Source of the DNA: Pseudomonadota bacterium
Lineage (GTDB): Bacteria; Myxococcota_A; Polyangia; Fen-1088
Length of the DNA stretch: 64,000 nucleotides
Assembly (NCBI GenBank): GCA_023438785.1
Contig: JAEXQJ010000307.1
Location: 2,093 to 66,092, forward strand
Direction: 5' to 3'
In this document: piece after piece, positions 2,829 through 16,273 of the stretch
Layout of the letters: every line of letters starts with the position of its first letter
Position numbering within the stretch: position 1 is the first letter of the stretch
Made by a program: the position numbers and the translations under genes
Notes under the pieces: generated by a model
Told to the model about the DNA's origin: nothing
Database searches by the model: none
Seen by the model: the letters and a program-made list of their open reading frames with translations, nothing else

Positions 2829-3755
2829 TCAGCGCTGGGCCACGTAGGCGATCACGCCGTAGCGCTTCTCGAAGGCGACCTTGCCGGCGAGTGCGTCTTT
2901 GGCGCTGGCAAAATCGCCCAATCGGACGCGGTACCACGTGCCCTTACCGGGGATTTCGGAGACCACCATGTAGGTCTTTTCCGCATCGAACTTCTTGGCG
3001 AACGCCTCGGCTTCGCCGCGCGTCTGAAACGAGCTGAGCTGCAGGGTGAAACGCGTCTTGCTTTTGGCGGCCTCGGTCGCAGTCGCGGCGATCACCGGGA
3101 CGGCCGCAGCCTTGGCTTCGGTCGGCTTGGGTGCGAGCTTGGTCTGGGGTACCGCATTGGCGGACTCGGGTGTCTTCACGTCGAGCTTGGCCACCTGCTT
3201 GGCCTCGGGCTTGGCTGCTTCGGCGGACTTGGGTGCCGCGGCTCTGGCCGGCTCGTCCTCGGCGACGGGCCTGGCGACGCCCTTGGCGCCCTCCCCGGCC
3301 TTGTCCTCAGGCTTGGCGGTCTGAGCGGGCTTGGCCGGCTCGGGCTTGGCCGGCTGAACGAGCTTGGCCGCCTCGGGCTTCGGCACATCGAGGCTGGTCG
3401 TCTCCACCGGCTTGGGATCTGGCTTCGCTCCGGCCTTCTTGCCGGTGGCCCCGGTCTTCCCGAACAGCGTCTGCGGGAACGTCACGGCCACGGCCTGACT
3501 GGCGCGCGGCGCGGCCGCGACCTTGTCGAGCAGAGCCAAGGGGTCCTCGGCTTCGGGCGCCACCGCGCGACCGCGCGACTCCAGTCGCTTGCCCACGATC
3601 ACACCGAGGACGAACAGCAGGCACGCCACCAGCGCACTGCCGAAGAACAGGAAGAAGACTTGCCGGTTGTCGAGGCGGACTTCGATCTTGTCGCGCCAGC
3701 GCTCGATATCGCGGAGGCCTCGCTCATCCATCGCTGCTCCGGAAGTGTAGCTCAT
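2829..3755 (-). CDS. SPOR-domain cell-division/peptidoglycan-binding protein with a TM anchor and a PAKPE-rich linker
   Basis: One TM segment (VFFLFFGSALVACLLFVLGVIVG), a long Pro/Ala/Lys/Glu low-complexity linker, and a C-terminal SPOR fold (FTLQLSSFQTRGEAEAFAKKF...GTWYRVRLGDF). The start was re-set to the ATG at 3755, which has a GAGGAG Shine-Dalgarno, so it does not overlap argS. Confidence 0.75.
   Translation of the reverse strand: MSYTSGAAMDERGLRDIERWRDKIEVRLDNRQVFFLFFGSALVACLLFVLGVIVGKRLESRGRAVAPEAEDPLALLDKVAAAPRASQAVAVTFPQTLFGKTGATGKKAGAKPDPKPVETTSLDVPKPEAAKLVQPAKPEPAKPAQTAKPEDKAGEGAKGVARPVAEDEPARAAAPKSAEAAKPEAKQVAKLDVKTPESANAVPQTKLAPKPTEAKAAAVPVIAATATEAAKSKTRFTLQLSSFQTRGEAEAFAKKFDAEKTYMVVSEIPGKGTWYRVRLGDFASAKDALAGKVAFEKRYGVIAYVAQR
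3290..3420. repeat. Imperfect short tandem repeats (gcttggccggctcgggctt-like) encoding the PAKPE linker of the SPOR protein
   Basis: Repeated ggcttggcc/ggcttcgg units are visible in the sequence. They match the AKPEPAKPAQTAKPE low-complexity peptide. Confidence 0.5.
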
Positions 3756-3792
3756 GGGCCGCTCCTCAGGAAAAACGCTTGCTGCCGATCGG

Positions 3793-5577
3793 CTAGGACG
3801 CATCCTCCGCTTCCCCTTCGCCAATGCGCTTCATGGCCTGCGGCGCCGAGACGCCCAGCAGGCCGAGCGCGATCTCCAGCACCTGGCGGATTGACTCGAC
3901 CCACAACAGCCGGGCGCCAGTCTTCTGCCAATCCCAGGTGGCGCGCCAGTCACCCACGCGCTGGCTCTCCTGGGGCAGGATGGTGTCGTTGCGGTTCTTG
4001 GTGACGGTGTAATAGCTCTGGAACAGGCCGGCCAGCTCCTGAATGTACTGCACCAGCCGGTGCGGCTCGCGCGCCGCTGCCGCGTCGGCCACGAAGTCCG
4101 GGAAGTCGGACAGCCGGCGCATGATGGCGATTTCCTCGGGCAGGGCCAGTTGAGCGGTCACCGCAGGCGAGGCGGCGAGGCGCGGCGCCTGCAGCTCGTC
4201 TGCCCGACGCAGAATCGACGCGCACCGGGCGTGGGCGTACTGCGCGTAGTACACGGGATTGTCCATCGACTGACGCTTGGCCAACTCGAGGTCGAACTCC
4301 AACGGCGTATCGTGCCGCCGCATGAGGTAGAAGAAGCGCGTGGCATCGCGGCCGATTTCCTCGATGACCGCGTCGAGCGTAACGAACTCGCCCTCCCGCT
4401 TGCCCATGGGCACCGGCTTGCCGTTGCGGAGCAGGCTGACCATTTGGATGAGCAACACGGAGAGCCGGTCCGGGTCGTGCCCGAGGGCCTTGAGGGCCGC
4501 CTTCATGCGCGGCACGTGGCCGTGGTGGTCGGCGCCCCAGATATCACAGAGATCGTCGAAGCCTCGCTCGATCTTCTTGCGGTGGTAGGCGATGTCGGCC
4601 AGCAGGTACGTGGGCAGGCCCCCCGTTTTCACCACCACGCGATCCTTGTCGTCACCCCACAAAACGGTGGTCTTCAACCACACCGCATCGTCGCGGCGAT
4701 CGATGTAGCCGGCCCTGTCCAGCACGTCCAGTGTCCCCGTCACGTCGCCGCTGTCGTGCAAGGCACGTTCGCTCTGCCACACGTCGAAGCTCACGTCGAA
4801 GCGGCCGAGGGTGCCCTTGATCATGTCCAGGCAGCGCTGGATGCCGAACTGCTTGATGGGCTCGATGTCGGCCGGCGGCTCAGCGCTGATCCACTTGCCG
4901 CCGTCACGCTGGAACAACTCGCGTCCCAGCCCCTTGATGTAGTCACCGCGGTAGCCGTTCTCGGGAAACGCCACCTCGGGCACGGATGCATCGGCGGCGC
5001 GCGCCTCCTCCATATAGCGGGTCCACACGGACAGGGCCAGCATGGCCACCTGGTTGCCCGCATCGTTGATGTAGAACTCGCGGACCACGTCGTAGCCCGC
5101 AAAGCGCAGCAGGCGGGTCAGAGAGTCGCCGACCGCCGCGTGGCGGCCGTGGGCGAAGTGGAGGGGCCCGGTGGGGTTGGCCGACAGGTACTCGACCAGC
5201 ACGCGCGGTGCCTTCTTCGCCTCTCCCCTGCCCCATTCCTTCCCGGCGCCCAAGATGTCCAGCAGGCGCCGCTGCCAGAAGGAATCGGAGAACTTCAGGT
5301 TAATGAACCCGGGGCCGGCCACCGAAACCTCGGCCAGGTCGACGCCACCCACCGCACGCAATCGCTCTGCCAGGGCCTCGCCCAGCACGCGCGGCGGTTT
5401 GCCCGCGCCCTTGGCCAGAGCAAGGGCCACGTTGGAGGCGAAGTCGCCATGCTCGGGGCGCTTGGCTCTCTCGACGGGGATGGAGGCCGGGAGCTCGGTG
5501 AGCAGTCCATCGGCCTTCGCCTTCTCTAGAGCGGCCTGCAAGAGGCCTCGGGCTGTGCTGCGTACGCTGGAGGTCAT
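3793..5577 (-). CDS. argS: Arginine--tRNA ligase
   Basis: 594 aa. Has the Arg-tRNA synthetase N-domain, the class I HIGH-like motif (PTGPLHFAHGRHA), the KMSK-like region and a DALR anticodon-binding C-terminus. Confidence 0.95.
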   Translation of the reverse strand: MTSSVRSTARGLLQAALEKAKADGLLTELPASIPVERAKRPEHGDFASNVALALAKGAGKPPRVLGEALAERLRAVGGVDLAEVSVAGPGFINLKFSDSFWQRRLLDILGAGKEWGRGEAKKAPRVLVEYLSANPTGPLHFAHGRHAAVGDSLTRLLRFAGYDVVREFYINDAGNQVAMLALSVWTRYMEEARAADASVPEVAFPENGYRGDYIKGLGRELFQRDGGKWISAEPPADIEPIKQFGIQRCLDMIKGTLGRFDVSFDVWQSERALHDSGDVTGTLDVLDRAGYIDRRDDAVWLKTTVLWGDDKDRVVVKTGGLPTYLLADIAYHRKKIERGFDDLCDIWGADHHGHVPRMKAALKALGHDPDRLSVLLIQMVSLLRNGKPVPMGKREGEFVTLDAVIEEIGRDATRFFYLMRRHDTPLEFDLELAKRQSMDNPVYYAQYAHARCASILRRADELQAPRLAASPAVTAQLALPEEIAIMRRLSDFPDFVADAAAAREPHRLVQYIQELAGLFQSYYTVTKNRNDTILPQESQRVGDWRATWDWQKTGARLLWVESIRQVLEIALGLLGVSAPQAMKRIGEGEAEDAS

Positions 5578-5710: not shown

Positions 5711-8700
5711 CTACTGAATCTGGAAGGTAGCGCTGCCCGTCACCGCCGGGCTGAACGCGGCATAGGCATCGGACGAACGGCGCGGGTTGATACGCAGGAT
5801 TTGACCGCGGGCTGGACTGAGCGACGAGCTGAGCGCCGTGCGGCCTTGGTCCACGAGGTACAGGTAGGGGTACTGAGTGGAGAACGGTGGCTGTCCCTCG
5901 ACTGGCACGAAGCTGCTCTGCCGGAAGGGACTCTCGGGAGTCCGCGTGGGCCCCACCACGATGCGCACGCCCTGGCTCAGCATGATGTCGTACGAGGGAA
6001 TGAGCACCGTCTCGGGGGTCACGCCGTCGGACACGTCCAGCCGGAAGCCCAGCCCGTCACCTCCGTATTGCTCCAGATTGGTCAAGACGAACCGAATCTG
6101 GGTGTTCTGGAAGACCGCCTTGGTGTGAATGCCCAGCGCGGTTCCGTTGGTTAGTGTCACGTTGGCCATAAGCAGGCAGGGGTCGGGCGCGACCACCCGG
6201 TCGATGGAAAGCGAAGCCTCGGGCGGCGTGTTCACCTGCCCGGGTTGGTTACCCTGGGCCGGCTGGTCATCCTGGAAGCTCGTGCAGAAAGGCGCGGAGA
6301 GCGGGATGCGGTCCGGCGGCACGCTCGTGTCGCGCACACACTGCCCGCCGACCGTCTTGGCCGTCGGGGTCCTGGGCAGTGAGCTCCCGGTCACCACGAA
6401 GCTGCGTCCCGCATGCACGTTGTACGTGACGGAGGGCTGCGGCCAGCAGGCCGTATCCACCGGCGGCGCTTCCACGCAGAGCGGCCCGATCTCGGGCAGC
6501 ACCCCGGGCACGCTTTCGCACACGTTCCCAGGACGACAGAAGTTGTCACCTTGGGGCGACCCAGCCGCGGGACACCTCTTCACGCAGCGCCGAGGACCGC
6601 CCGCCTGGATCTGCAGACATTGGAATCCCGGGTCAGCTTGGCCGTCCGGCCAGTCAGCTCCGCTTGGCCGGTGCGCTGACGTGACATAACAGTCCGTGTC
6701 CGCCGCACACTCGTCCAGGGTCTGGCGCGACAGCGGCGGCCGCGATACGTCGTCCAATTTGAGCCCAAGCGTGAGTTGGGTGGGCGTTGCGGTTTGAATC
6801 TCGTATCGCCGGCGGCTGTTGAGCAAACGCGTGCACCGCTGCACCAGAGGCTTGCCGGCGGCGGAGTCCTTGGGCAGGCAAAGGCCTCGCACCCCGCCCG
6901 AGACGCGTCGACAGACGAACTCGTCTTGCGGCACGCAATCCGTGTCCTTGAGACAACCGGGCATCACGACCAAGTCGCCTGCCAGAACGCTGTGCGAGCA
7001 GAAGTCGCCTCCCGCATCGATGAGCGTCCCGGCCAGGTTCTCGGCGCCAGGGAGCACGGTCCCCGAGTCTCGACTCGTCTGCGGGAGCAACTCCTCCCAG
7101 ACGATGGTCCAGCGGTGCGAGACCGGCGACGTGGGGTCGGGGAACGCGGCCCACGAATGCTCGATGTTCCCGGTCGCTGACTGGTTCGCGCTCAGGGTGA
7201 TGGAATCCACGTAGGGCCCCTGCGTGGGCGACAGGGATGCGGTTGTGGCGAACAGCAGATCCGATGCGTTCTGCACGCGCAGGGGCGCCGTGTAGGTGGT
7301 GGGCTGTCGGGCACCGGCGTAGCCGGTCGAGCGGGCCTCGCGGAACGCGTGGGTTGCCGTGGAGCGGATGAACTCGAGCGCGAACTTGGCCGGGTCCGGA
7401 TCCTCGTTGGACCGCAGAATGAGCGGCTCAGGATTGGGCGCCAAATTGGTCACGTAGACCGTGCCGTTGGAGGCGAGCAGGAACCCGAACTGGCCCGTCA
7501 GGCCCTGGGGTTTGCTCAGCCAATTCGCCTCCGGGACATCCAACTCCGCGAAGGCAATGTCGCGCGCCAAGGGCGGCTGCACATCCTGTGAGGATAGGAC
7601 GGGGATGGTGATGCCCGGCCCAGAGGCCAGTGGACGCCGCGTTGCGCCCGGCGTTCCCACCGGAATGCACGGCCCGCTGAAGGGATCGGGCAGCCCGGTC
7701 ACGGGATCGGTCTCGGTGAGCCCGGACACGCCCAGGGTCTGGCGCAAAACGGCCTTGTTGGCTTCGCTCGGCTCGATGTTGACGTCGCACTCCCGGCCAA
7801 TGCCGTTGGCCAGGGTGGAATCGAGCTGAACAACGCGTACGGAAGCGTCGCGCGCGAAGGCGTACACGAACCGCCCCCGGTTGTCCAAGAAGTCCCCTTG
7901 CCCCACCTGCTGCCCATTCTCGACCCGCGGCTTGAAGGGATCGACCGTCAGGCGCAGCCGGTCAACGCCCACGGCATTCCCCGCCAGAAGCAGGCGGCCA
8001 CGGTCGACCAGCGCGGCCCCTTGCAGATCGAAGACCGAGATGAACGGAAGCTGGCTTGAGCCCACGTAGACGCGCGTGCCATCGGGGCTGACCGCCAGCG
8101 CGCTCACGCCGAGCGGGCCTGCCGTGGCGGAGCCGGCATTGTCCATCGCGGCGGCGTCGGAAGCGCCGCTGTCGTCCTCCTGCCCCGCGTCCTCCGCGCC
8201 TGCATCGACGAGGCTCGCGTCTGCAGGGCTGGGCGCGGCGCCTCCGTCCAGTGTGCCGAGGCAGTCATTCGCACACTCCGGCTCTGCCCCCGCTCGCACG
8301 GCGCCGCCCGCCTGGATGTAGTAAGAATCGAGGATTCGCCCCGAGGGCAGGTCGAGCAGCGCGAGCAGGTTGCAGTTCGGGAACGTGACCAGGGCCCTGG
8401 GGGCCTGGGTGGCGGAGCACAGCTGAGCAGGCTCAGTCGTCGGCAGAAAGGCAACCTCCCCGGGCGCGGCACGAAGCACGCGCCCTGAGGCCGTGGTCGG
8501 TTGAATGCGGGTCACCACCGCGCCCGCGCCGGAGGCGGCGCCCACGTCGTTGAACAGCGGCGAGAGCAGACGGGACGGATCGATCAACGCCAGATCGCAG
8601 GACTGCCGATTGGCCGTGGCCACCCAGCAGCCGTCCTGGCTGGCCGCTAGAGACTCGGGCATCGTGCCGACCGGGACGGTTCCGAACCCGGGGACGATCG

Positions 8701-9040
8701 GGTCCAGGTCCACCAGACGGTTCCGATCCAAGTCCACCACCGACAACTCGCCTCGGGAGGTGTTGGTCACCACGGCGAAGGTCCCCAGAGTGCGCGGCGA
8801 GGTCAGGCCCGGGCAGCTGTTGCTCGCCGTGGCCTGCGCGCAGGCCCCAGCGGGTTGGCACACGCGCATGGGCTGGCCCGTGAGCACCTCGGTGCCATTC
8901 CCATCCTGCACGGTGGCCAGGCAGAGGAAGCCCATATCCGAAGGCCGTTCCAGATTGCGCGCCGGAATGACCGTGGGCGTATCGCTGCAGGATGAGAGCA
9001 GCACGAGCAGGGAGACAGAGACAAGGGCGTAACGCTTCAT
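5711..9040 (-). CDS. Very large (1109 aa) lipoprotein with beta-propeller (YVTN/NHL-like) repeats and Cys-rich modules
   Basis: Lipoprotein signal (LLVLLSSCS). Repeats of the LAVSPDGTRVYVGS and GTVYVTNL type, plus many paired Cys in the distal half. Its ATG overlaps the stop of the upstream gene (ATGA). Confidence 0.7.
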   Translation of the reverse strand: MKRYALVSVSLLVLLSSCSDTPTVIPARNLERPSDMGFLCLATVQDGNGTEVLTGQPMRVCQPAGACAQATASNSCPGLTSPRTLGTFAVVTNTSRGELSVVDLDRNRLVDLDPIVPGFGTVPVGTMPESLAASQDGCWVATANRQSCDLALIDPSRLLSPLFNDVGAASGAGAVVTRIQPTTASGRVLRAAPGEVAFLPTTEPAQLCSATQAPRALVTFPNCNLLALLDLPSGRILDSYYIQAGGAVRAGAEPECANDCLGTLDGGAAPSPADASLVDAGAEDAGQEDDSGASDAAAMDNAGSATAGPLGVSALAVSPDGTRVYVGSSQLPFISVFDLQGAALVDRGRLLLAGNAVGVDRLRLTVDPFKPRVENGQQVGQGDFLDNRGRFVYAFARDASVRVVQLDSTLANGIGRECDVNIEPSEANKAVLRQTLGVSGLTETDPVTGLPDPFSGPCIPVGTPGATRRPLASGPGITIPVLSSQDVQPPLARDIAFAELDVPEANWLSKPQGLTGQFGFLLASNGTVYVTNLAPNPEPLILRSNEDPDPAKFALEFIRSTATHAFREARSTGYAGARQPTTYTAPLRVQNASDLLFATTASLSPTQGPYVDSITLSANQSATGNIEHSWAAFPDPTSPVSHRWTIVWEELLPQTSRDSGTVLPGAENLAGTLIDAGGDFCSHSVLAGDLVVMPGCLKDTDCVPQDEFVCRRVSGGVRGLCLPKDSAAGKPLVQRCTRLLNSRRRYEIQTATPTQLTLGLKLDDVSRPPLSRQTLDECAADTDCYVTSAHRPSGADWPDGQADPGFQCLQIQAGGPRRCVKRCPAAGSPQGDNFCRPGNVCESVPGVLPEIGPLCVEAPPVDTACWPQPSVTYNVHAGRSFVVTGSSLPRTPTAKTVGGQCVRDTSVPPDRIPLSAPFCTSFQDDQPAQGNQPGQVNTPPEASLSIDRVVAPDPCLLMANVTLTNGTALGIHTKAVFQNTQIRFVLTNLEQYGGDGLGFRLDVSDGVTPETVLIPSYDIMLSQGVRIVVGPTRTPESPFRQSSFVPVEGQPPFSTQYPYLYLVDQGRTALSSSLSPARGQILRINPRRSSDAYAAFSPAVTGSATFQIQ

Positions 9041-10602
9041 TCGGTCACCGCGTGCGGGAATCCAAGCCTCTGTACCACCCGGAACTCGGTCGGGCTGCCC
9101 GGCACAAGGTCAATCACCGAAATGGAGTTGTCGGCGTAGTTCGCCACATAGGCCGTCTGGCCATCGGGTGAGAAGACCAAGGCGTTGGGACTTCGCCCTG
9201 TCTCGATGATGGCGGTCACCTCCAGCAGGGCGGGATCGATCACGTACATCTGCCCGCCTTCGAAGCAGGTGACATACAGCATGTTGCCGCGGCCGGCGTC
9301 ATGCATCTGCAAATCCGTGGGCCCCAGACAGACCTCCACGACCGCCACGGGCCGGTTGGCCGGCTGGCCGGTCTCGTCAGGGCGCCGGTCGAGGACGACC
9401 AGCGCCGCAGGGTCACTGGTGCCCTCATTGCGGTGCAGGACGTAGGCCTCTTGGCGGCAGCTGGTTGCCGAACCGGTGCACGTCGTTCCTTGCATGGCCG
9501 CAACAGCTCCCGGCGACAACACCAGGCCGCGCAGAGATGTGCCGGCGGGCTGGAATGCCGAGGAGAGGATCCGCTGGCCGGGCACCACAGACAGGTCCAC
9601 GTCGGGCAGATTGGTGCGCGGCGCCGCCAAATCGCATGTGCCCTGGCTCGCGTCGCGTAGCACGAGCTCTTCGATCTCCGACCCGCTTCGCTCTATGGCA
9701 AAGAGAGGCGCGTTGGGTCCCGTGCCGTTGAGGCTGAGGTCGGTCACCGACTGTGAAGCGGCGCCGGGGAAGACCGTGCGAGAGACATTGCGGAAACGAG
9801 GCGAGCTCGCCACGTCGGGGCCACCGCACACATCGATGCTGGAAACACCGCCCCCGACGATCTGCCCGTTCACCGCTTGGGCCAGATGCCCCACGAACAG
9901 GATGCCGAGTTCTTCGTTGAGGGCGAGCGTATGCGGTTCCTCCGGCAGCACGTTGGCGTACACCTCCGAATTGGAGGGGCGCCGAATGCGCCAGTTGTCG
10001 TCACACGACGCATTCATTGGGGCGGTTCCTGTGTCGCTGCCGCGCTCTCCCGTACAGCGTATGCGCGGACCGCTATCGTCGACGGTCACGTCGGCGAATG
10101 TGATTGAGGGCTCGGCGCGCACCGTTAGGTACAGGCGCCTCCTGGTCGCGAGTTCCGGGTCTCGCTGCAACACCATCGCTCCACCAAAGCTGCCGATCTT
10201 CACGGTGGTGTCAGCCTTGACGTAGCCCCGATCGTTGCAGTTGAGGACGCGATCGTCGACCATGTCTCGACAGCAGAAGCGGTCGGCCACCTCCTCGTCT
10301 CCGGTGAAGCGGGTCCGGGTGCAGGTTGCCCAGGCCGCTGCCGCGGGATCGCTGCGGTCCTCGACCGCCTTCCGGAGATCCACGGCCGTGAGCGTCCCCG
10401 CGTTGTAGCGGAGGTCGCCGTTGGCGTTGACCACGTAGAGCCAGTCCCCGTTCGGATCGACCGCCAGCCCGGCCGGAAGCAAGATTTCGTCGAGTGGCGG
10501 GGCGATCCCGTCCTGCCCCACCCCGCACCCGGCGACGGAAGACAGCACGCCCACCACAGAGAACAGTCGAAACGTCAAACGGGCAGTCATGCAGGATCTC
10601 AT
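9037..10602 (-). CDS. Lipoprotein (521 aa) with YVTN-type beta-propeller repeats
   Basis: Lipobox (VLSSVAGCG). Motifs include LAVDPNGDWLYVVNANGD and SPDGQTAYVANYADNSISVIDL. It is translationally coupled to the 1109-aa lipoprotein. Confidence 0.7.
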   Translation of the reverse strand: MRSCMTARLTFRLFSVVGVLSSVAGCGVGQDGIAPPLDEILLPAGLAVDPNGDWLYVVNANGDLRYNAGTLTAVDLRKAVEDRSDPAAAAWATCTRTRFTGDEEVADRFCCRDMVDDRVLNCNDRGYVKADTTVKIGSFGGAMVLQRDPELATRRRLYLTVRAEPSITFADVTVDDSGPRIRCTGERGSDTGTAPMNASCDDNWRIRRPSNSEVYANVLPEEPHTLALNEELGILFVGHLAQAVNGQIVGGGVSSIDVCGGPDVASSPRFRNVSRTVFPGAASQSVTDLSLNGTGPNAPLFAIERSGSEIEELVLRDASQGTCDLAAPRTNLPDVDLSVVPGQRILSSAFQPAGTSLRGLVLSPGAVAAMQGTTCTGSATSCRQEAYVLHRNEGTSDPAALVVLDRRPDETGQPANRPVAVVEVCLGPTDLQMHDAGRGNMLYVTCFEGGQMYVIDPALLEVTAIIETGRSPNALVFSPDGQTAYVANYADNSISVIDLVPGSPTEFRVVQRLGFPHAVTE

Positions 10603-10672
10603 CGGGTCGGACCGCCCGCCGGGAATTCTGAGTTGCCGGACCGTGCTGCTCTCTGTGGCGCGTGTTCGAACA

Positions 10673-13591
10673 CTACTTCTTCACGACCGCCTGGGCCGCG
10701 GCCAGCCGCGCGATGGGCAGCCGGTACGGCGAGCAGGACACGTAGTTCAGACCCAGTTCGTCGCACAGCATGACGGAATTTGGATCACCGCCGTGCTCAC
10801 CGCAAATGCCGATCTTGATCTTCTCGCGCGTCTTGCGGCCGCCTTCGACCGCCACGCGCATGAGCTTGCCCACGCCGTCTCGATCCAGGCTGACGAAAGG
10901 ATCGACATCGTAGATGTCCTTGGCGACGTAGTCGGCCAGCACCTTGGGGACGTCATCGCGGGACAGGCCGAAGGTCGTCTGCGTGAGGTCGTTGGTGCCG
11001 AAGGAGAAGAACTCCGCGGTCTCGGCGATGTTGTCCGCGTTGAGCGCGGCGCGCGGCACTTCAATCATGGTGCCCACCAGGTACTTCAGCTTGCGGCCCC
11101 GCTCCTGGAAGACCTCCTCGGCCACGCGGCGAACGATGCTCGCCTGGTGATCGAGCTCCTTCTTGCTGCCCACCAGCGGGATCATGATCTCGGGCTCGAT
11201 CACGGTTCCCTCGGCAGCCACGTCGCACGCCGCCTCGAAGATGGCGCGCGCCTGCATCTCGGTGATCTCGGGGTACGAGATGCCGAGGCGGCAGCCGCGG
11301 TGTCCGAGCATGGGGTTGGACTCCTTCAGCTCGTCGATGCGAGCCTCGATGGCTTCGACGCTCTTGCCGCTGGCTTGCGCCAGCTCCCGAATGCCCGCCT
11401 CATCGTGCGGCAGGAACTCGTGCAGCGGGGGATCGAGCGTGCGGATGGTCACCGGGCGCTTGCCCATGGCGCGGAAGATGCCCGCGAAGTCCTCGCGCTG
11501 CACCGGCAGCAGCTTCTCCAGGGCCTTGCGGCGCGTGGCCTCGTCCTCGGCGACGATCATCTCGCGCATGGGGCCGATCTTGCCCTCGCCGAAGAACATG
11601 TGCTCCGTGCGGCACAACCCGATGCCCTCGGCGCCGAAGGCGACCGCGGCCCCGGCCTGATCGGGCTGATCCGCGTTGGCGCGCACGCGCAGGCGTCGAG
11701 CCGCGTCCGCCCAGCTCATCAGCTTGGCGTAGTTCTGATACACGGGCGCGCTCTTTCCATCGAGGTTCTTCTCGATGAGCACGCGGATGACCTCGGAAGG
11801 CGTCGTGTCGACGCGTCCGTTGAGCACCTCGCCGGTGAAGCCGTCGATGGAGATCCAGTCACCTTCCTTGATGACCAGAAGCCCGTTGGCCGAGTTCACG
11901 CTCATCGTGCGCTCGTGATAGTCGAAGCTGATCGCCTCGCAGCCCACGATGCACACCTTGCCCATCTGACGGGCGACGAGCGCGGCGTGCGAGGTCATTC
12001 CACCAAAGGCCGTCAGGAAGCCTTCGGAAGCGTTCATGCCGCGGATATCCTCGGGAGAGGTCTCGTGACGACACAGGATCGTCTTCTCGCCACGCGCGGC
12101 CCAGGCCTCGGCGTCGTCAGCGAAGAAAACCACGCGGCCGGTTGCGGCACCGGGCCCCGCCGGCAGTCCCTTGGCGAGCAGGCGCGCGTCCTTGATGGCC
12201 GCTGCCTTGGCGGCCGGCTCGAACACCGGACGCAGCAACTGATTGAGCGCCTCGGGCTCCACGCGGCGCAGCGCCTCGTTCTTGTCGATGAGCCTTTCGT
12301 CGACCATCTCGACGGCGATGCGGACGCTGGCGAAGCCGGTGCGCTTGCCGTTGCGGCACTGAAGCATGAAGAGCTTCGAGTTCTCGATGGTGAACTCGAT
12401 GTCCTGCATGTCCTTGTAGTGCTTCTCCAGCTTCTTGCGGATGTCGAGGAGCTGCTTGTAGGCCTTGGGGAAGCTCTTCTCCAACTCGACGATCTTCTGC
12501 GGCGTACGAATGCCGGCGACCACGTCCTCGCCCTGGGCGTTGACGAGGAACTCGCCGTAGAATTCGTTCTCACCGCTGGCCGGGTTGCGCGTGAAGCACA
12601 CGCCGGTGGCCGAGTCCTCTCCCTTGTTGCCGAAGACCATGGCCTGCACGTTGACGGCCGTGCCCCACGAGGCGGGAATGCCGTTCAGCTTGCGGTACGC
12701 GTTGGCGCGGTCGTTCTCCCAGGAGCTGAACACAGCCATGATGGCGCCGCGTAGCTGATCCAGGGGATTGGTCGGGAAATCCACGCCCTTGCGGCGCTTG
12801 ATCTCGGCCTTGAACTCCTCGACCAACTCCTTGAGAGCGGAGGCTGGAAGCTCAGCGTCGATCTGCACGCCGACCTCCTTCTTCTTGGCCGAGAGGATCA
12901 CCTCGAAGGGATCGTGGTCTTCCTTGCGCTCGGGCTTCATGCCCAGCACCACGTCGCCGTACATAGCCACGAAACGGCGATAGCTGTCGTAAGCAAAACG
13001 CTCGTTGCCGGACACCTGGGCTAGGCCCGCGGCCGTCTCGTCGTTGAGGCCAAGATTGAGGATGGTGTCCATCATGCCCGGCATGGACGCGCGCGCGCCC
13101 GAACGGACCGAGACCAGAAGCGGGTTTTGTGGATCGCCGAACTTGGCGCCCAGGAGCGACTCCATCTTGGCCACGGAGGCCTTGACCTCGTCCTCCAAGC
13201 CCTTGGGGAGCTTGCGGCCGTTGGCGTAGAACTCGGTGCACACCTCGGTCGTGATGGTGAAGCCGGGCGGGACGGGCGCGCCGATGTTCGTCATCTCGGC
13301 CAGGTTCGCGCCCTTGCCGCCGAGCAGGTTCTTCATGTCCTTGTTGCCCTCGGCCTTGCCACCGCCGAAGAAGTAGATGCGCTTCAGGCGCTTTTCGGCG
13401 ACGGGCTTGGCCGGCTTGGCGGCCTTGGGAGTCTTGGCGGCCTTGGGAGCCTTTGCAGCCTTGGGAGCCTTCGCAGCCTTGGGAGCCTTCGCAGCCTTGG
13501 GAGCCTTTGCAGCCTTGGCGGCCTTCGCGGCCTTCACAGGCTTGGCACTGGCCTTCTTCTTTTTGGGAGTGGGGGCTGTTTTCTTTTTCAT
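10673..13591 (-). CDS. ppdK: Pyruvate, phosphate dikinase with a ~70-aa N-terminal Lys/Ala/Pro-repeat (histone H1/AlgP-like) extension
   Basis: The body is canonical PPDK: [15 protein letters not shown], the catalytic [15 protein letters not shown], and a PEP-utilizing C-terminal domain. The start was re-set to ATG 13591 ([13 protein letters not shown]), in frame with the (KAAKAP)n repeat. The track ORF extends another 59 codons upstream. Confidence 0.88.
13423..13530. repeat. 18-bp tandem repeat (ccttgggagccttYgcag, about 5 copies) encoding (KAAKAP)n in the ppdK N-terminus
   Basis: Perfect and near-perfect 18-nt units are directly visible at 13441-13520. The period is a multiple of 3 and in frame with ppdK. 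Confidence 0.8.
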
Positions 13592-13841
13592 GGCTTTTTT
13601 CGGGGGTTGCGGGTGAAGGGAATCGGCGCAGTTTCTACCAGGGTGCGGCGAGGATGAAAAGCCCCGCGTCAGAGTGTGGCCCGTCGGAACCGCGAGGGAA
13701 AGCGCGCAGACGATCGCCGGACTCTCCGTCGCGGTTGGGTCATGAGCCCTTCGTTGCTCGTCGGTCAAAGACGTCGGGTCGTCTCCCTCCGCGCGCCTCG
13801 GGCGGCTGGCCTCTCCGCGTCTTCGCTCGGCGTTCAGCGCT

Positions 13842-15473
13842 CTAGCGACTCTTTCCGGAGAGGACGGAGGGCAACTCGCCGGCCTTGGCCCGCTCCTGTT
13901 GCATGCTGTCGCGGTCGCGCACGGTGACCGTCTGATCCTCCAAGCTCTGGAAGTCCACGGTTACGCACCAGGGCGTTCCAACCTCGTCCTGGCGGCGATA
14001 CAGCTTGCCGATGGCGCCGGTGTCGTCGTAGACGGCGCGCAAGCCGGCGGCCTGCAGATCACGCTTGATGCCCCGGGCGAGCTCCACCAGTCGGGGCTCG
14101 TTGCGCTTGAGCGGGAAGACGGCCACCGTGAGCGGAGCCAGACGCGGGTGGAGATGCAGAACCGTCCGGGTGTTCTCCTCGGCTAGTTTCTCCCCTACCC
14201 CGCGCACTTTCTTCATGACCTCGATCTTGCCGGCCTCCGTGTCCTCCATGAGGCCGATGAGGCGCGGCAGGGTGCCGGGCAAGCCGGCGGCGATGGCCTC
14301 GGCTTCTCCCACCAGGCGCGCCTTGACGTCCTTGTCCATGCCCTCGCGACGCCCCACCGACTTGGCGAAGCTTTCGACCAACTCGCGCAGCTTGGTGGTG
14401 TCCTCCGGGGACGGCTCCTTGACCAGGGCGTCCTCGTAGGCGTCGCACAGGAACGCCAGCGTGGCCCGGTCGGCACCCGCGGAGGGCTCGATGACGTAGG
14501 GCACGTAGTGCTTCTTCTGCTCGGGATCGAAGTAGCGAAGCTCGCCCACCGCATCGGGGTTCTCCGCGCTGCGGCTGTGCGCCTTGAGATCGAAGTCCGT
14601 GCGATTGGCAATGCCCTCCAACTCGCTCCAGCCCATGGGGAACCTGTACTCCAGGTCCACGCAGCGCTTGGCGTAGTGGGCCAGCTCCTCCTTGGCCTGC
14701 TCGCGCACGCGGAGGTTTTCGGGCCGCAGGCCCAGGTCGCGGTACCACTTCTGGCGTTCCGCAATCCACATCTCGTGGGCCGCCTCGTCCTCGCCCGGCC
14801 GCACGAAGTACTCGATCTCCATCTGCTCGAACTCGCGCGTGCGGAACGTGAAGTTGCCGGGCGTGATTTCGTTGCGGAAGGCCTTGCCGACCTGGGCGAT
14901 GCCGAAGGGCAGCTTGCGCCTCATGGTGTCGAGCACGTTGCCGAAATTGACGAAGATGCCCTGGGCCGTCTCGGGGCGCATGTAGACCAGCGCCGACTCA
15001 TCGCCGGTGTCCACCGGACCGACGGTGGTGCGGAACATCAGGTTGAACGGGCGCGCCTCGGTCAGGTCCTTCGAGCCGCACTTGGGGCAGGCCAGCTCCT
15101 TGGCCGCGATGGCCGCGTTGATCTCGGCAAGGCCCTTGGGATCGCGTCCCTTCTGGGCGGCGAACACGTGATCGGCTCGCGGCCGCGCCTTGCAGGCCCG
15201 GCAGTCCGTCATGGGATCGGCGAAGGTGGCCTCGTGCCCCGAGTACTTCCACACGAGGCGATTCATCAGGATGGCTGCATCCAGCCCCTCCATGTCGTCC
15301 CGTTCGTACACCACAGACCGCCACCAGGCGCGCTTCACGTTGTTCTTCAGCTCGACGCCCAGGGGACCGTAGTCCCAGGTGCTCCCCAGACCGCCGTAGA
15401 CCGAAGAGGAAGGAAAGACGAACCCGCGCCGTTTGGCGAGGCTGACGATGGTTTCGAGAGATGACGCTGGCAT
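13842..15473 (-). CDS. glyQS: Glycine--tRNA ligase, homodimeric alpha2 (archaeal/eukaryote-like) type
   Basis: Class II motifs ([23 protein letters not shown]; [10 protein letters not shown]) and an anticodon-binding C-terminus. The start was re-set to [10 protein letters not shown] at 15473. Confidence 0.9.
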
Positions 15474-15514
15474 GGGCCCGCAATCTACTCGAATTCCCAT
15501 GCAAGTCGATTCTG

Positions 15515-16273
15515 CTAAACGCGCCCGCCCATTTTCTCGATGAAGACAAGAGAGCGCAGCGGGGCGTCGGCGTGGTCGCGTACCAGCTCCAGCAGGGCGC
15601 GACGACAACCCGCGCCGGTGTCGCGGTCGAGGACGAGCTCATCAGCCTCGGACAGCGACATGCGCCCCAGGCTGAGCAGGGCCCGGCGAACCGGGGCGGT
15701 GAGCAGGTCACCGCGTGGGGCACAACCGGAGCAAACCGCGCCGCCGCGCGTGGGGTGCCAACGCATGGTCTGATCGGTCAAGTCCTCGCGGCCGCAGACC
15801 GCGCATCGATCGAGGGTCGGGCCGTATCCCAGCTTGGCCAGCAGGCCGAGCTCGAAGACGCGCAGCCGTTCGGCCGTGGCCCGGCCCGCTTCCAGTCGGT
15901 CCAGGAACTCCGCCAGCCAGTCGAACACGGCCGGCTCAGGATGTCGCGCGGGCAGCAGCCGCTCGCACAGTTCGAGGGCGTACGCCGCGTGAGCCGTCTT
16001 GCCGAGGTCGGCCGCCAGGCCCAGACGAGCCTGTGTGACGTCCAGGCCTTCGAGAATCAGAAGCTCGCTCCCCGCTCGCTCGCGCAGCAAGGCCTGTCCC
16101 GACGCGCCCATGCCCAGCCCGCCGGAGAATCGCCTGGCGCTCTTGCGCGCACCGCGGGCCAGCGCCGCGACCTTGCCCGTGCTGCGGCCCAATAGCGTGA
16201 CCACGCGATCGGATTCGCCATAGGCGACCGTCCGTAAGACGATGGCCCACGCAGTCGAACTGGTACGCACCAC
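15515..16273 (-). CDS. recO: DNA repair protein RecO
   Basis: [36 protein letters not shown] is the RecO N-terminal OB fold. The C-terminus has a CxxC...CxxC zinc motif (CAVCGRE...CSGC). GTG start. Confidence 0.85.

Follow-up and report, generated by a model that had tools for sequence, protein, structure and literature searches.

Introduction

Disordered tails rich in Lys, Ala and Pro are found in the C-terminal domain of histone H1, in chlamydial Hc1/Hc2 and in mycobacterial HupB, all of which are dedicated chromatin proteins. The basic N-terminal peptide of FrzCD from Myxococcus xanthus binds DNA in a sequence-independent manner and brings FrzCD to the nucleoid, and its charge is kept while its sequence varies across species (PMC5716589). 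In Pseudomonas, the KPAA tail of AlgP is associated with polyphosphate (polyP) granules and with DNA (PMC9239181), and the disordered KPAA region of PhaF binds RNA (PMC12818456). A Lys-rich region of histidine ammonia lyase (HAL) from Trypanosoma cruzi binds polyP electrostatically, which affects localization and activity, polyP acting as an inhibitor of the enzyme (PMC8561398). Here, we analyze a Lys/Ala/Pro-rich tail at the predicted N-terminus of a pyruvate, phosphate dikinase (PPDK) encoded by a bacterium of the Polyangia (Myxococcota). The DNA under study, referred to below as the window, is a 64,000-nucleotide stretch of contig JAEXQJ010000307.1 (assembly GCA_023438785.1); all positions are those of the window unless a locus is named.

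The initial annotation of the window, made from the sequence alone, had described the feature as an H1/AlgP-like tail encoded by an 18-bp tandem repeat. We find a 70-residue, predicted disordered tail with a charge of +25 on a canonical PPDK. A basic tail at this end appears to be an old feature of the Polyangia PPDK lineage and, in the reading that we favor with modest confidence, tethers PPDK to a polyanion. A full-text search of open-access papers retrieved no description of PPDK tails of this kind. Both the enzyme and the type of tail are known; their combination is undescribed and is convergent in a second phylum. The enzymes of central metabolism in bacteria are commonly regarded as diffusing freely; here, an enzyme that handles AMP and pyrophosphate (PPi) keeps an H1-like tail clade-wide.

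Results

The tail-bearing protein is a canonical PPDK

The product of the gene contains all three PPDK domains of Pfam, PPDK_N, PEP-utilizers (the mobile His domain) and PEP-utilizers_C. It matches the NCBIfam equivalog TIGR01828 with 1318.7 bits (cutoff 843.45), and residues 70-969 cover profile positions 2-864 of 865. This full-length match above the curated cutoff, together with the three-domain architecture, places the protein in the TIGR01828 PPDK family. Comparison with the solved structures 1DIK, 1KBL, 1VBG and 5JVJ gave E = 0. The motifs GGMTSH (G530-G531-M532-T533-S534-H535) and GICGEHGG (C930-G931-E932-H933-G934-G935), which from established PPDK biochemistry we take to be the catalytic phospho-histidine motif and the C-terminal motif, respectively, are invariant in an alignment with relatives (alignment A2). 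In the same alignment, K70, F74, F75 and G76 are invariant or nearly so. The host protein is an ordinary, otherwise canonical PPDK.

The solved PPDKs of Clostridium symbiosum, maize, Flaveria and Trypanosoma align with their own residues 2-9 at residues 70-80 of the window protein. Since both TIGR01828 and the solved enzymes begin at residue 70-80, the tail is an add-on outside the known fold.

Composition and repeat structure of the tail

Of the 70 tail residues, 25 are Lys, 25 Ala and 10 Pro, and only one (Glu) is acidic. Besides Ala and the initiator Met, the only hydrophobic residues are two Val and one Leu, and Pro recurs every 6 residues. The net charge of the tail is +25 versus -10 for the 902-residue core. 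In an AlphaFold2 model built from a 69-sequence alignment, residues 1-67 are predicted coil, with predicted local distance difference test values of 26-43 and no secondary structure; the model thus shows the tail as disordered and outside the enzyme fold. A search of the tail by itself against Pfam returned no family at E <= 1, and a tail-only search of 5.8 billion proteins returned no match at E <= 0.001, the low-complexity correction removing everything. This leaves no basis for a claim of homology to AlgP, H1 or Hc2.

The peptide string had been given exactly in the initial annotation. The feature lies on the minus strand, and the extent given, 13420-13591, covers most of the tail, which in fact runs slightly further, to 13382. 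Tandem Repeats Finder detects an 18-bp period at 13422-13534 (6.3 copies, 90% matches) and describes the same array also as a 9-bp period at 13406-13547. At the protein level, the Lys spacing is exactly 3 residues across 15 successive intervals. The near-perfect, frame-keeping 18-nt units noted earlier are indeed present, the four central ones differing by GCA/GCG only. When seven repeat units are compared with their consensus, there are 8 synonymous and 4 non-synonymous codon differences; out of 13 nucleotide differences among the units, 9 affect the third and none the second position of the codon. The Lys codon of the repeat is AAG, not AAA.

From the base composition of the window, ca. 0.012 Lys per codon are expected, versus 25 observed in 70 tail codons. 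Among 57,011 stop-free 70-codon windows in the six frames of the 64 kb, 88 contain at least 13 Lys, and these form one sliding series whose peak equals the Lys count of the tail itself. Likewise, a scan of the 64-kb window for K-rich tracts found none besides the PPDK tail. The Lys-rich tract is far beyond chance, as had been supposed from a GC content of 70%; the actual value for the window is 67%.

Anionic lipids are possible binding partners of polybasic stretches, and phase variation can be driven by tandem repeats. The tail might accordingly anchor PPDK at the membrane or direct its export, or the repeat might act as a phase-variable contingency switch; each of these readings is barely credible here. 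A membrane anchor or signal peptide was rejected given the absence of an amphipathic helix and of a hydrophobic signal-peptide core and the coil predicted by AlphaFold2. A contingency locus was rejected given that the 9- and 18-bp periods are in frame inside the coding sequence: the repeat period is a multiple of 3, and therefore slippage cannot switch the frame on or off.

Translation of the tail

The canonical in-frame start codons TTG 13768, ATG 13591 and GTG 13537 all lie upstream of the repeat, and the next ATG would remove the conserved first strand RIYFFGGG. In an alignment with relatives of 88-90% identity (L081 and L083), the ATG, the first seven codons and ca. 75 nt upstream are conserved, and ATG AAA AAG AAA ACA is retained at the DNA level. 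Start codons were checked on DNA in six loci; in the window, L081, L086 and L085, there is no ATG, GTG or TTG between the distal start and the core. Lys enrichment starts at the ATG, although the frame immediately upstream (PPKKA) also has two Lys codons. Among near relatives, the tails of 23 codons differ by 2 synonymous and 3 non-synonymous changes, too few to weigh either way.

The tail is almost certainly translated as an N-terminal extension, because every canonical in-frame start is upstream of the repeat, because a basic tail is kept in 119 of 119 complete homologues (see below), because the differences among repeat units are mostly at codon position 3 and because an independent in-frame expansion exists in the related locus L090. 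The initial annotation had likewise placed the repeat inside the PPDK frame, as an N-terminal extension rather than a 5′ untranslated region (UTR).

The converse, namely that the repeat is part of the 5′ UTR and that PPDK starts at the non-canonical CTG 13387 beside the core, is extremely unlikely. An open frame of 70 codons is by itself not rare at 67% GC, the frame here stays open upstream of the ATG as far as 13960, and no Shine-Dalgarno-like sequence is visible upstream of ATG 13591. However, no ATG, GTG or TTG is available between the repeat and the core, and the CTG is missing in relatives, where KRAKRIYFF, KRSKRIYFF and similar sequences are found. Furthermore, Lys enrichment from the ATG on is kept in all 119 relatives despite complete sequence turnover, and the frame is preserved by every indel and by two independent repeat expansions. 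A search of Rfam with positions 13200-14000 (both strands, E <= 1) returned no known 5′ UTR RNA element. As for the alternative GTG start that had been suggested at VAEKR, the Val codon is GTC (13400-13402), and this start therefore does not exist.

An effect on mRNA, whereby A-rich Lys codons keep the 5′ end unstructured for translation initiation despite the GC-rich genome and the peptide itself does not matter, would agree with the DNA-level conservation of the first codons, with the missing Shine-Dalgarno sequence and with the lower GC content of the tail at codon positions 1 and 2 (0.57 and 0.59). We consider it very unlikely, since it accounts for the first few codons at most, whereas tails of 21-142 residues are 63-67% GC downstream of them. 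The use of AAG rather than AAA in the repeat also speaks against it, and the C-terminal tails of Treponema PPDKs, from genomes of 41-42% GC (see below), would be left unexplained.

Tails of Polyangia homologues and origin of the repeat

We compared the best 120 homologues of the window protein (76-90% identity), which come from Polyangia or Deltaproteobacteria metagenome-assembled genomes where named. A basic Lys/Ala-rich N-terminal extension precedes K-R-[IV]-Y-F-F-G in each of the 119 complete homologues. The single tail-less homologue, P0078, starts at base 2 of its contig; it has no tail because it is cut by the contig end. For the 113 homologues with a delimitable tail, the length is 21-142 residues (median 46) and the net charge +10 to +42 (median about +14). 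Acidic residues make up 32 of 5,310 tail residues (0.6%) versus 13.7% in the cores. Apart from an MPSLxK or MKKK start that recurs, the aligned tails have no conserved column. Charge is kept while the sequence varies, so it is the charge and not the sequence that is conserved; the homologues show selection that acts on the former. The initial annotation had named absence or frame disruption of the tail in close relatives as grounds for giving it up. Neither is seen, the basic tail being present and in frame in all 119 complete homologues; it is (KAAKAP)n itself that is not conserved.

Some subclades have recognizable motifs. An MPSLxK or MPSVxK start occurs in 44 of the 119 tails (N-termini of P0029-P0120), and NG[VIH][KRH] motifs (e.g., NGVKAK, KNGHKNGH) occur in 53, which hints at something more than bare composition in these subclades.

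In the nearest relatives (88-90% identity, 28 clusters), the tail is only MKKKTAPASKKAKAKTAAPKRAKRIYFF, i.e., 23 residues with a charge of +10 and no repeat; one close relative has a tail of 33 residues. As relatives with the 23-residue tail share the same gene order, the (KAAKAP)n array is, by this comparison, specific to the lineage of the window and arose when an older, short basic tail was expanded in frame. Another tail, that of a related Polyangia PPDK, was expanded independently: at L090:1731-1904, a 21-bp repeat (8.3 copies, in frame) encodes (AAKAGKV)n within a tail of 142 residues. With this second case, in-frame tandem duplication appears to be a recurring route of tail growth.

No PPDK of the same species was retrieved by an exact look-up of the window protein or by a metagenome scan for two repeat units. 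The scan gave three matches, all to one unrelated small protein of ca. 214 amino acids (aa) (L087:about 1800-2200, L088:about 200-500, L089:about 3400-3800). In this protein, the repeat is central, preceded by a helical part at the N-terminus and followed by a C-terminal domain without a Pfam match. It contains a 32-nt exact match to the window repeat, and its repeat copy number varies among the three near-identical metagenome contigs.

It could be argued that the extra (KAAKAP)n copies are tolerated neutral length variation caused by slippage and that at most a short basic N-terminus matters. Consistent with this, the nearest relatives do with 23 residues and no repeat, the near identity of the four central units suggests a recent origin, the unrelated gene just described shows copy-number variation in a repeat of this kind, and the tails, 21-142 residues long, lack conserved columns. 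We nevertheless regard it as quite unlikely. Basic, acid-free tails persist in every member of two PPDK clades at 66-90% core identity, long tails are the rule (medians of 46 and 109 residues, the latter in the Treponema clade described below), and the window protein, with its expanded tail, also has a more acidic core. Moreover, slippage addresses the extra length alone and not the existence of a tail.

Tails on other PPDKs

In other phyla, PPDK starts 2-6 residues before [KR][VI]YxF (80 genomes, among the matches listed). As a diverse sample, we took the best 150 representatives at 50% identity from a search of 1.84 billion proteins. The conserved motif could be located in 86 of them, and 70 of these 86 have at most 10 residues before the core. 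None of the best 150 representatives (motif locatable in 86) carries a Lys-rich N-terminal tail of the Polyangia-clade type, and the tail is absent from all 11 distinct solved PPDK sequences matched. The remark in the initial annotation that such a tail is unusual for PPDK is thereby borne out.

Two of the 150 representatives have C-terminal K/A/P tails. One such group was sampled as P0122 plus the best 120 homologues (P0271-P0390; 66-82% identity, 930-1115 residues); where names are given, they are Treponema sp. or Spirochaetia, including isolates R8-4-B8 and R80B11-R83G3. A C-terminal tail of the (AKKPA)n type is present in 119 of these 121 PPDKs, the two exceptions being partial sequences, and the N-termini are canonical. 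The tails have a median length of 109 residues, a median charge of +33 and a Lys fraction of 0.33, and many of them have a precomputed Pfam match to HC2 (PF07382, histone H1-like nucleoprotein). Their DNA repeats, with periods of 15, 30 and 45 bp, are in frame. A scan of the surroundings of two Treponema ppdK genes (18 kb and 23 kb) turned up no Lys-rich acid-free tract apart from the tail of PPDK.

Basic tails were also seen on scattered PPDKs. An Ignavibacteria locus (L005) encodes a PPDK with a 27-aa basic N-terminal tail and no alternative start, and an alphaproteobacterial one (L079) a PPDK with a basic N-terminal tail of at least 16 and up to 44 aa. P0130 is a PPDK with a 49-aa C-terminal tail (+23), and the PPDK P0162 has a basic N-terminal tail.

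These comparisons show the tail to be atypical for PPDK and yet to have been gained repeatedly. Since the Treponema tails are at the opposite terminus and have another repeat unit, their origin is independent, i.e., a matter of convergence and not of homology. Polycationic H1-like tails have thus been gained independently at either end of PPDK and retained since, at a genomic GC content of 41% in one case and 67% in the other. Independent gains at either end and at differing GC content argue for a function of the peptide itself and against a 5′ UTR, an mRNA effect or junk. Convergence on one enzyme points to a selected function at the protein level.

Genomic neighborhood

Relatives share the gene order HTH (helix-turn-helix gene) - recO - glyS - ppdK, as seen in the gene tables for L081-L084, L086 and L090. 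The stretch immediately upstream of the ATG (13592-13667) is probably a remnant of the glyS terminator together with the ppdK promoter and 5′ UTR. A weak terminator-like hairpin was found at 13674-13662; hairpins occur at chance level only. A scan for σ70 promoters in the region upstream of ppdK gave no consensus match.

The glyS-ppdK intergenic region (13592-13841) is 250 bp long in the window versus 96 bp in the nearest relatives (L081:2905-3000). Its proximal ca. 75 nt are conserved, including the terminator-like GCGGGGCTTTTC and CCCTGRTAGAAAC, and the extra ca. 150 bp are unique to the window. Downstream of ppdK, also on the minus strand, are genes for a 547-aa product with only a weak SGL/beta-propeller match (9037-10680) and for a 1132-aa product with no Pfam match (5711-9109). 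In relatives, both genes occupy conserved positions and encode proteins of 527 aa and about 1110 aa without a Pfam match. The features discussed are listed in Table 1.

Table 1. Features of the ppdK locus in the window and of the Treponema tail loci.
Feature	Position	Strand	Basis and remarks
PPDK (pyruvate, phosphate dikinase) coding sequence	10673..13591	minus	972 aa with tail; open reading frame list, Pfam, TIGR01828
N-terminal polycationic tail, residues 1-70	13382..13591	minus	translation, composition, charge, AlphaFold2
ATG start of tail-bearing protein (MKKKTAP...)	13589..13591	minus	first in-frame ATG; ATGAAAAAGAAAACAGCCCC conserved in L081/L083
In-frame GTG (V of AKPVKAAK)	13535..13537	minus	only other canonical start past the ATG; still upstream of repeat
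Array of 15 consecutive Lys-x-x triplets (KAA/KAP/KTP/KPA/KPV)	13400..13534	minus	periods 9 and 18 bp
Four near-identical 18-bp units AAGGCTGCRAAGGCTCCC, coding (KAAKAP)4	13445..13516	minus	sole differences synonymous GCA/GCG
In-frame CTG (L of KRLKRIYFF)	13385..13387	minus	non-canonical; sole possible start codon after repeat
First beta-strand of PPDK core (RIYFF, residues 72-76)	13364..13378	minus	AlphaFold2 strand; all other PPDKs are homologous from here on
Conserved upstream non-coding stretch (GCGGGGCTTTTCATC...CCCTGRTAGAAAC...)	13592..13667	minus	alignment with L081/L083
glyS (glycyl-tRNA synthetase), upstream neighbor	13842..15608	minus	Pfam
Treponema PPDK tail loci	L093:12740-12898; L094:12698-13054		

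Discussion

Polyanion binding is, by analogy with the described systems, the most likely activity of the tail. In the tethering reading, the basic N-terminal tail would be an old and stably kept feature of the Polyangia (Myxococcota) PPDK lineage, with sequence and length free to drift. A short ancestral tail (ca. 23 residues, +10) would have been lengthened in the lineage of the window via in-frame tandem duplication of a 9/18-bp unit. The tail would bind nucleoid DNA, RNA or polyP electrostatically and irrespective of sequence, and so would keep the PPDK dimer on a polyanion scaffold, localized or concentrated there; tail length would set binding strength or valency.

Several points weigh against this reading. 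Among the six loci checked, L090 and L092 have a GTG 9-14 codons before the core. The tails of homologues were taken from automatic gene calls, which favor long open reading frames, and the ATG of the window has no Shine-Dalgarno-like sequence, as mentioned above. The specificity of such tails for PPDK was read from the genomic neighborhoods scanned only. Finally, tail and core charges are negatively correlated (Spearman -0.68, n = 113, uncorrected for phylogeny), which fits a charge-balancing or intramolecular role equally well.

In such a role, the tail would offset the acidic core (charge, isoelectric point, solubility) or fold back onto acidic surfaces or phosphate-binding sites of PPDK, in the latter case modulating activity or oligomerization. 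The window tail/core pair is +25/-10, and in 90%-identical relatives the tail is +10 and the core -2 to +1; in other words, the window core is 8-11 charges more acidic and the tail 15 more basic. P0104 combines a tail of +42 with a core of -18, and the standard deviation of the total charge, 4.0, is narrower than if tail (4.4) and core (4.6) varied independently. We still hold this role to be unlikely. The correlation ignores phylogeny, and one subclade has cores of -12 to -15 but tails of just +14 to +17. Among 11 Treponema-clade proteins measured there is no tail-core correlation, and Treponema cores are near neutral (median +1) and yet have tails with a median of +33. PPDKs of the usual, tail-less kind cope although they are more acidic (median about -16 to -18).

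The tethering reading can be extended, speculatively and with little confidence, to PPDK parked on nucleic acid or polyP in at least two unrelated lineages (Polyangia with the N-terminal tail and Treponema with the C-terminal one), where it would recycle AMP and PPi. PPDK converts phosphoenolpyruvate (PEP), AMP and PPi to ATP; aminoacyl-tRNA synthetases release AMP and PPi, and polymerases release PPi. Placement on RNA or DNA would put the enzyme at the source of AMP and PPi, a rationale that is itself speculative. Parked PPDK would use PEP to turn AMP and PPi from these enzymes (or polyP-derived phosphate) into ATP at the nucleoid, RNA or translation machinery, with a residence time tuned by the repeat-set length of the tail. 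In all Polyangia loci, ppdK is directly downstream of glyS; as a hint of function, this adjacency may be a coincidence.

Should PPDK be parked in this way, it would represent convergent spatial organization of central metabolism through histone-H1-like disordered tails. If the tail is a mere charge or solubility appendage, the finding amounts to a modest annotation note. The tail gives simple experimental access to the question of whether metabolic enzymes in bacteria are stationed on the nucleoid, RNA or polyP. The case also shows how in-frame micro-repeats can lengthen such tails and flags an apparent coupling of tail and core charge. Whichever function holds, the start codon of these genes is best kept at the far ATG.

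Comparison with known systems

The H1/AlgP-like character attributed to the tail by the initial annotation holds for its K/A/P-rich, predicted disordered composition, which with ca. 36% Lys resembles that of H1, Hc and HupB tails; membership in the AlgP/PhaF KPAA family does not follow from it. PPDK is an enzyme and, unlike H1 and HupB proteins, has no globular H1/H5 or HU domain. Assignment to linker histone H1 was rejected as there is no winged-helix linker-histone domain and only the composition of the tail is alike, and assignment to the chlamydial Hc2-type nucleoproteins (PF07382) as the tail has no Pfam match at the threshold used.

Like the PPDK tail, those of AlgP and PhaF are tandem repeats of Lys, Ala and Pro only, predicted disordered and highly cationic. 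They are encoded by DNA repeats whose copy number varies, and they link nucleic acid or polyP to a non-chromosomal function (polyP granules, polyhydroxyalkanoate granules) or interact with RNA. Their unit is KPAA, with Lys at every 4th residue, versus every 3rd (KAA/KAP) in the PPDK tail, and they are C-terminal on small helical domains, versus N-terminal on an enzyme of ca. 900 residues. Membership in the KPAA family was rejected, the tail having no KPAA, 8 KAAK and 4 KAPK and a Lys period of 3, and so was an AlgP/phasin architecture, the tail being N-terminal on PPDK with no other Pfam domain. With no KPAA, no profile match, the other terminus and another host protein, the PPDK tail therefore falls outside the KPAA and HC2 families.

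T. cruzi HAL is, like PPDK, a metabolic enzyme with a terminal Lys-rich region. It differs in being a different enzyme, from a eukaryote and acting in the acidocalcisome, and its region is C-terminal, short and non-repetitive. The Treponema tails share with that of the window the enzyme itself, the polycationic K/A/P composition, clade-wide presence with variable length, in-frame repeats and local uniqueness. They differ in terminus and phylum, have a pentapeptide unit and are longer, and many of them match HC2, which the window tail does not.

FrzCD is, like the PPDK described here, a cytoplasmic protein of the Myxococcota that acts outside DNA metabolism and has a positive, unstructured N-terminus. 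In both, positive charge is kept while sequence varies, as seen for PPDK in 119 homologues. The FrzCD peptide is ca. 30 residues long and non-repetitive, versus 70 residues with a (K-x-x)15 array in PPDK; FrzCD is a signaling receptor for which binding was demonstrated, and PPDK is a metabolic enzyme for which binding is inferred. The sequence and structure traits of the FrzCD type, taken as a functional class and not as a sequence family, are a terminal, disordered, net-positive segment with conservation of charge rather than sequence, and the PPDK tail has each of these properties.

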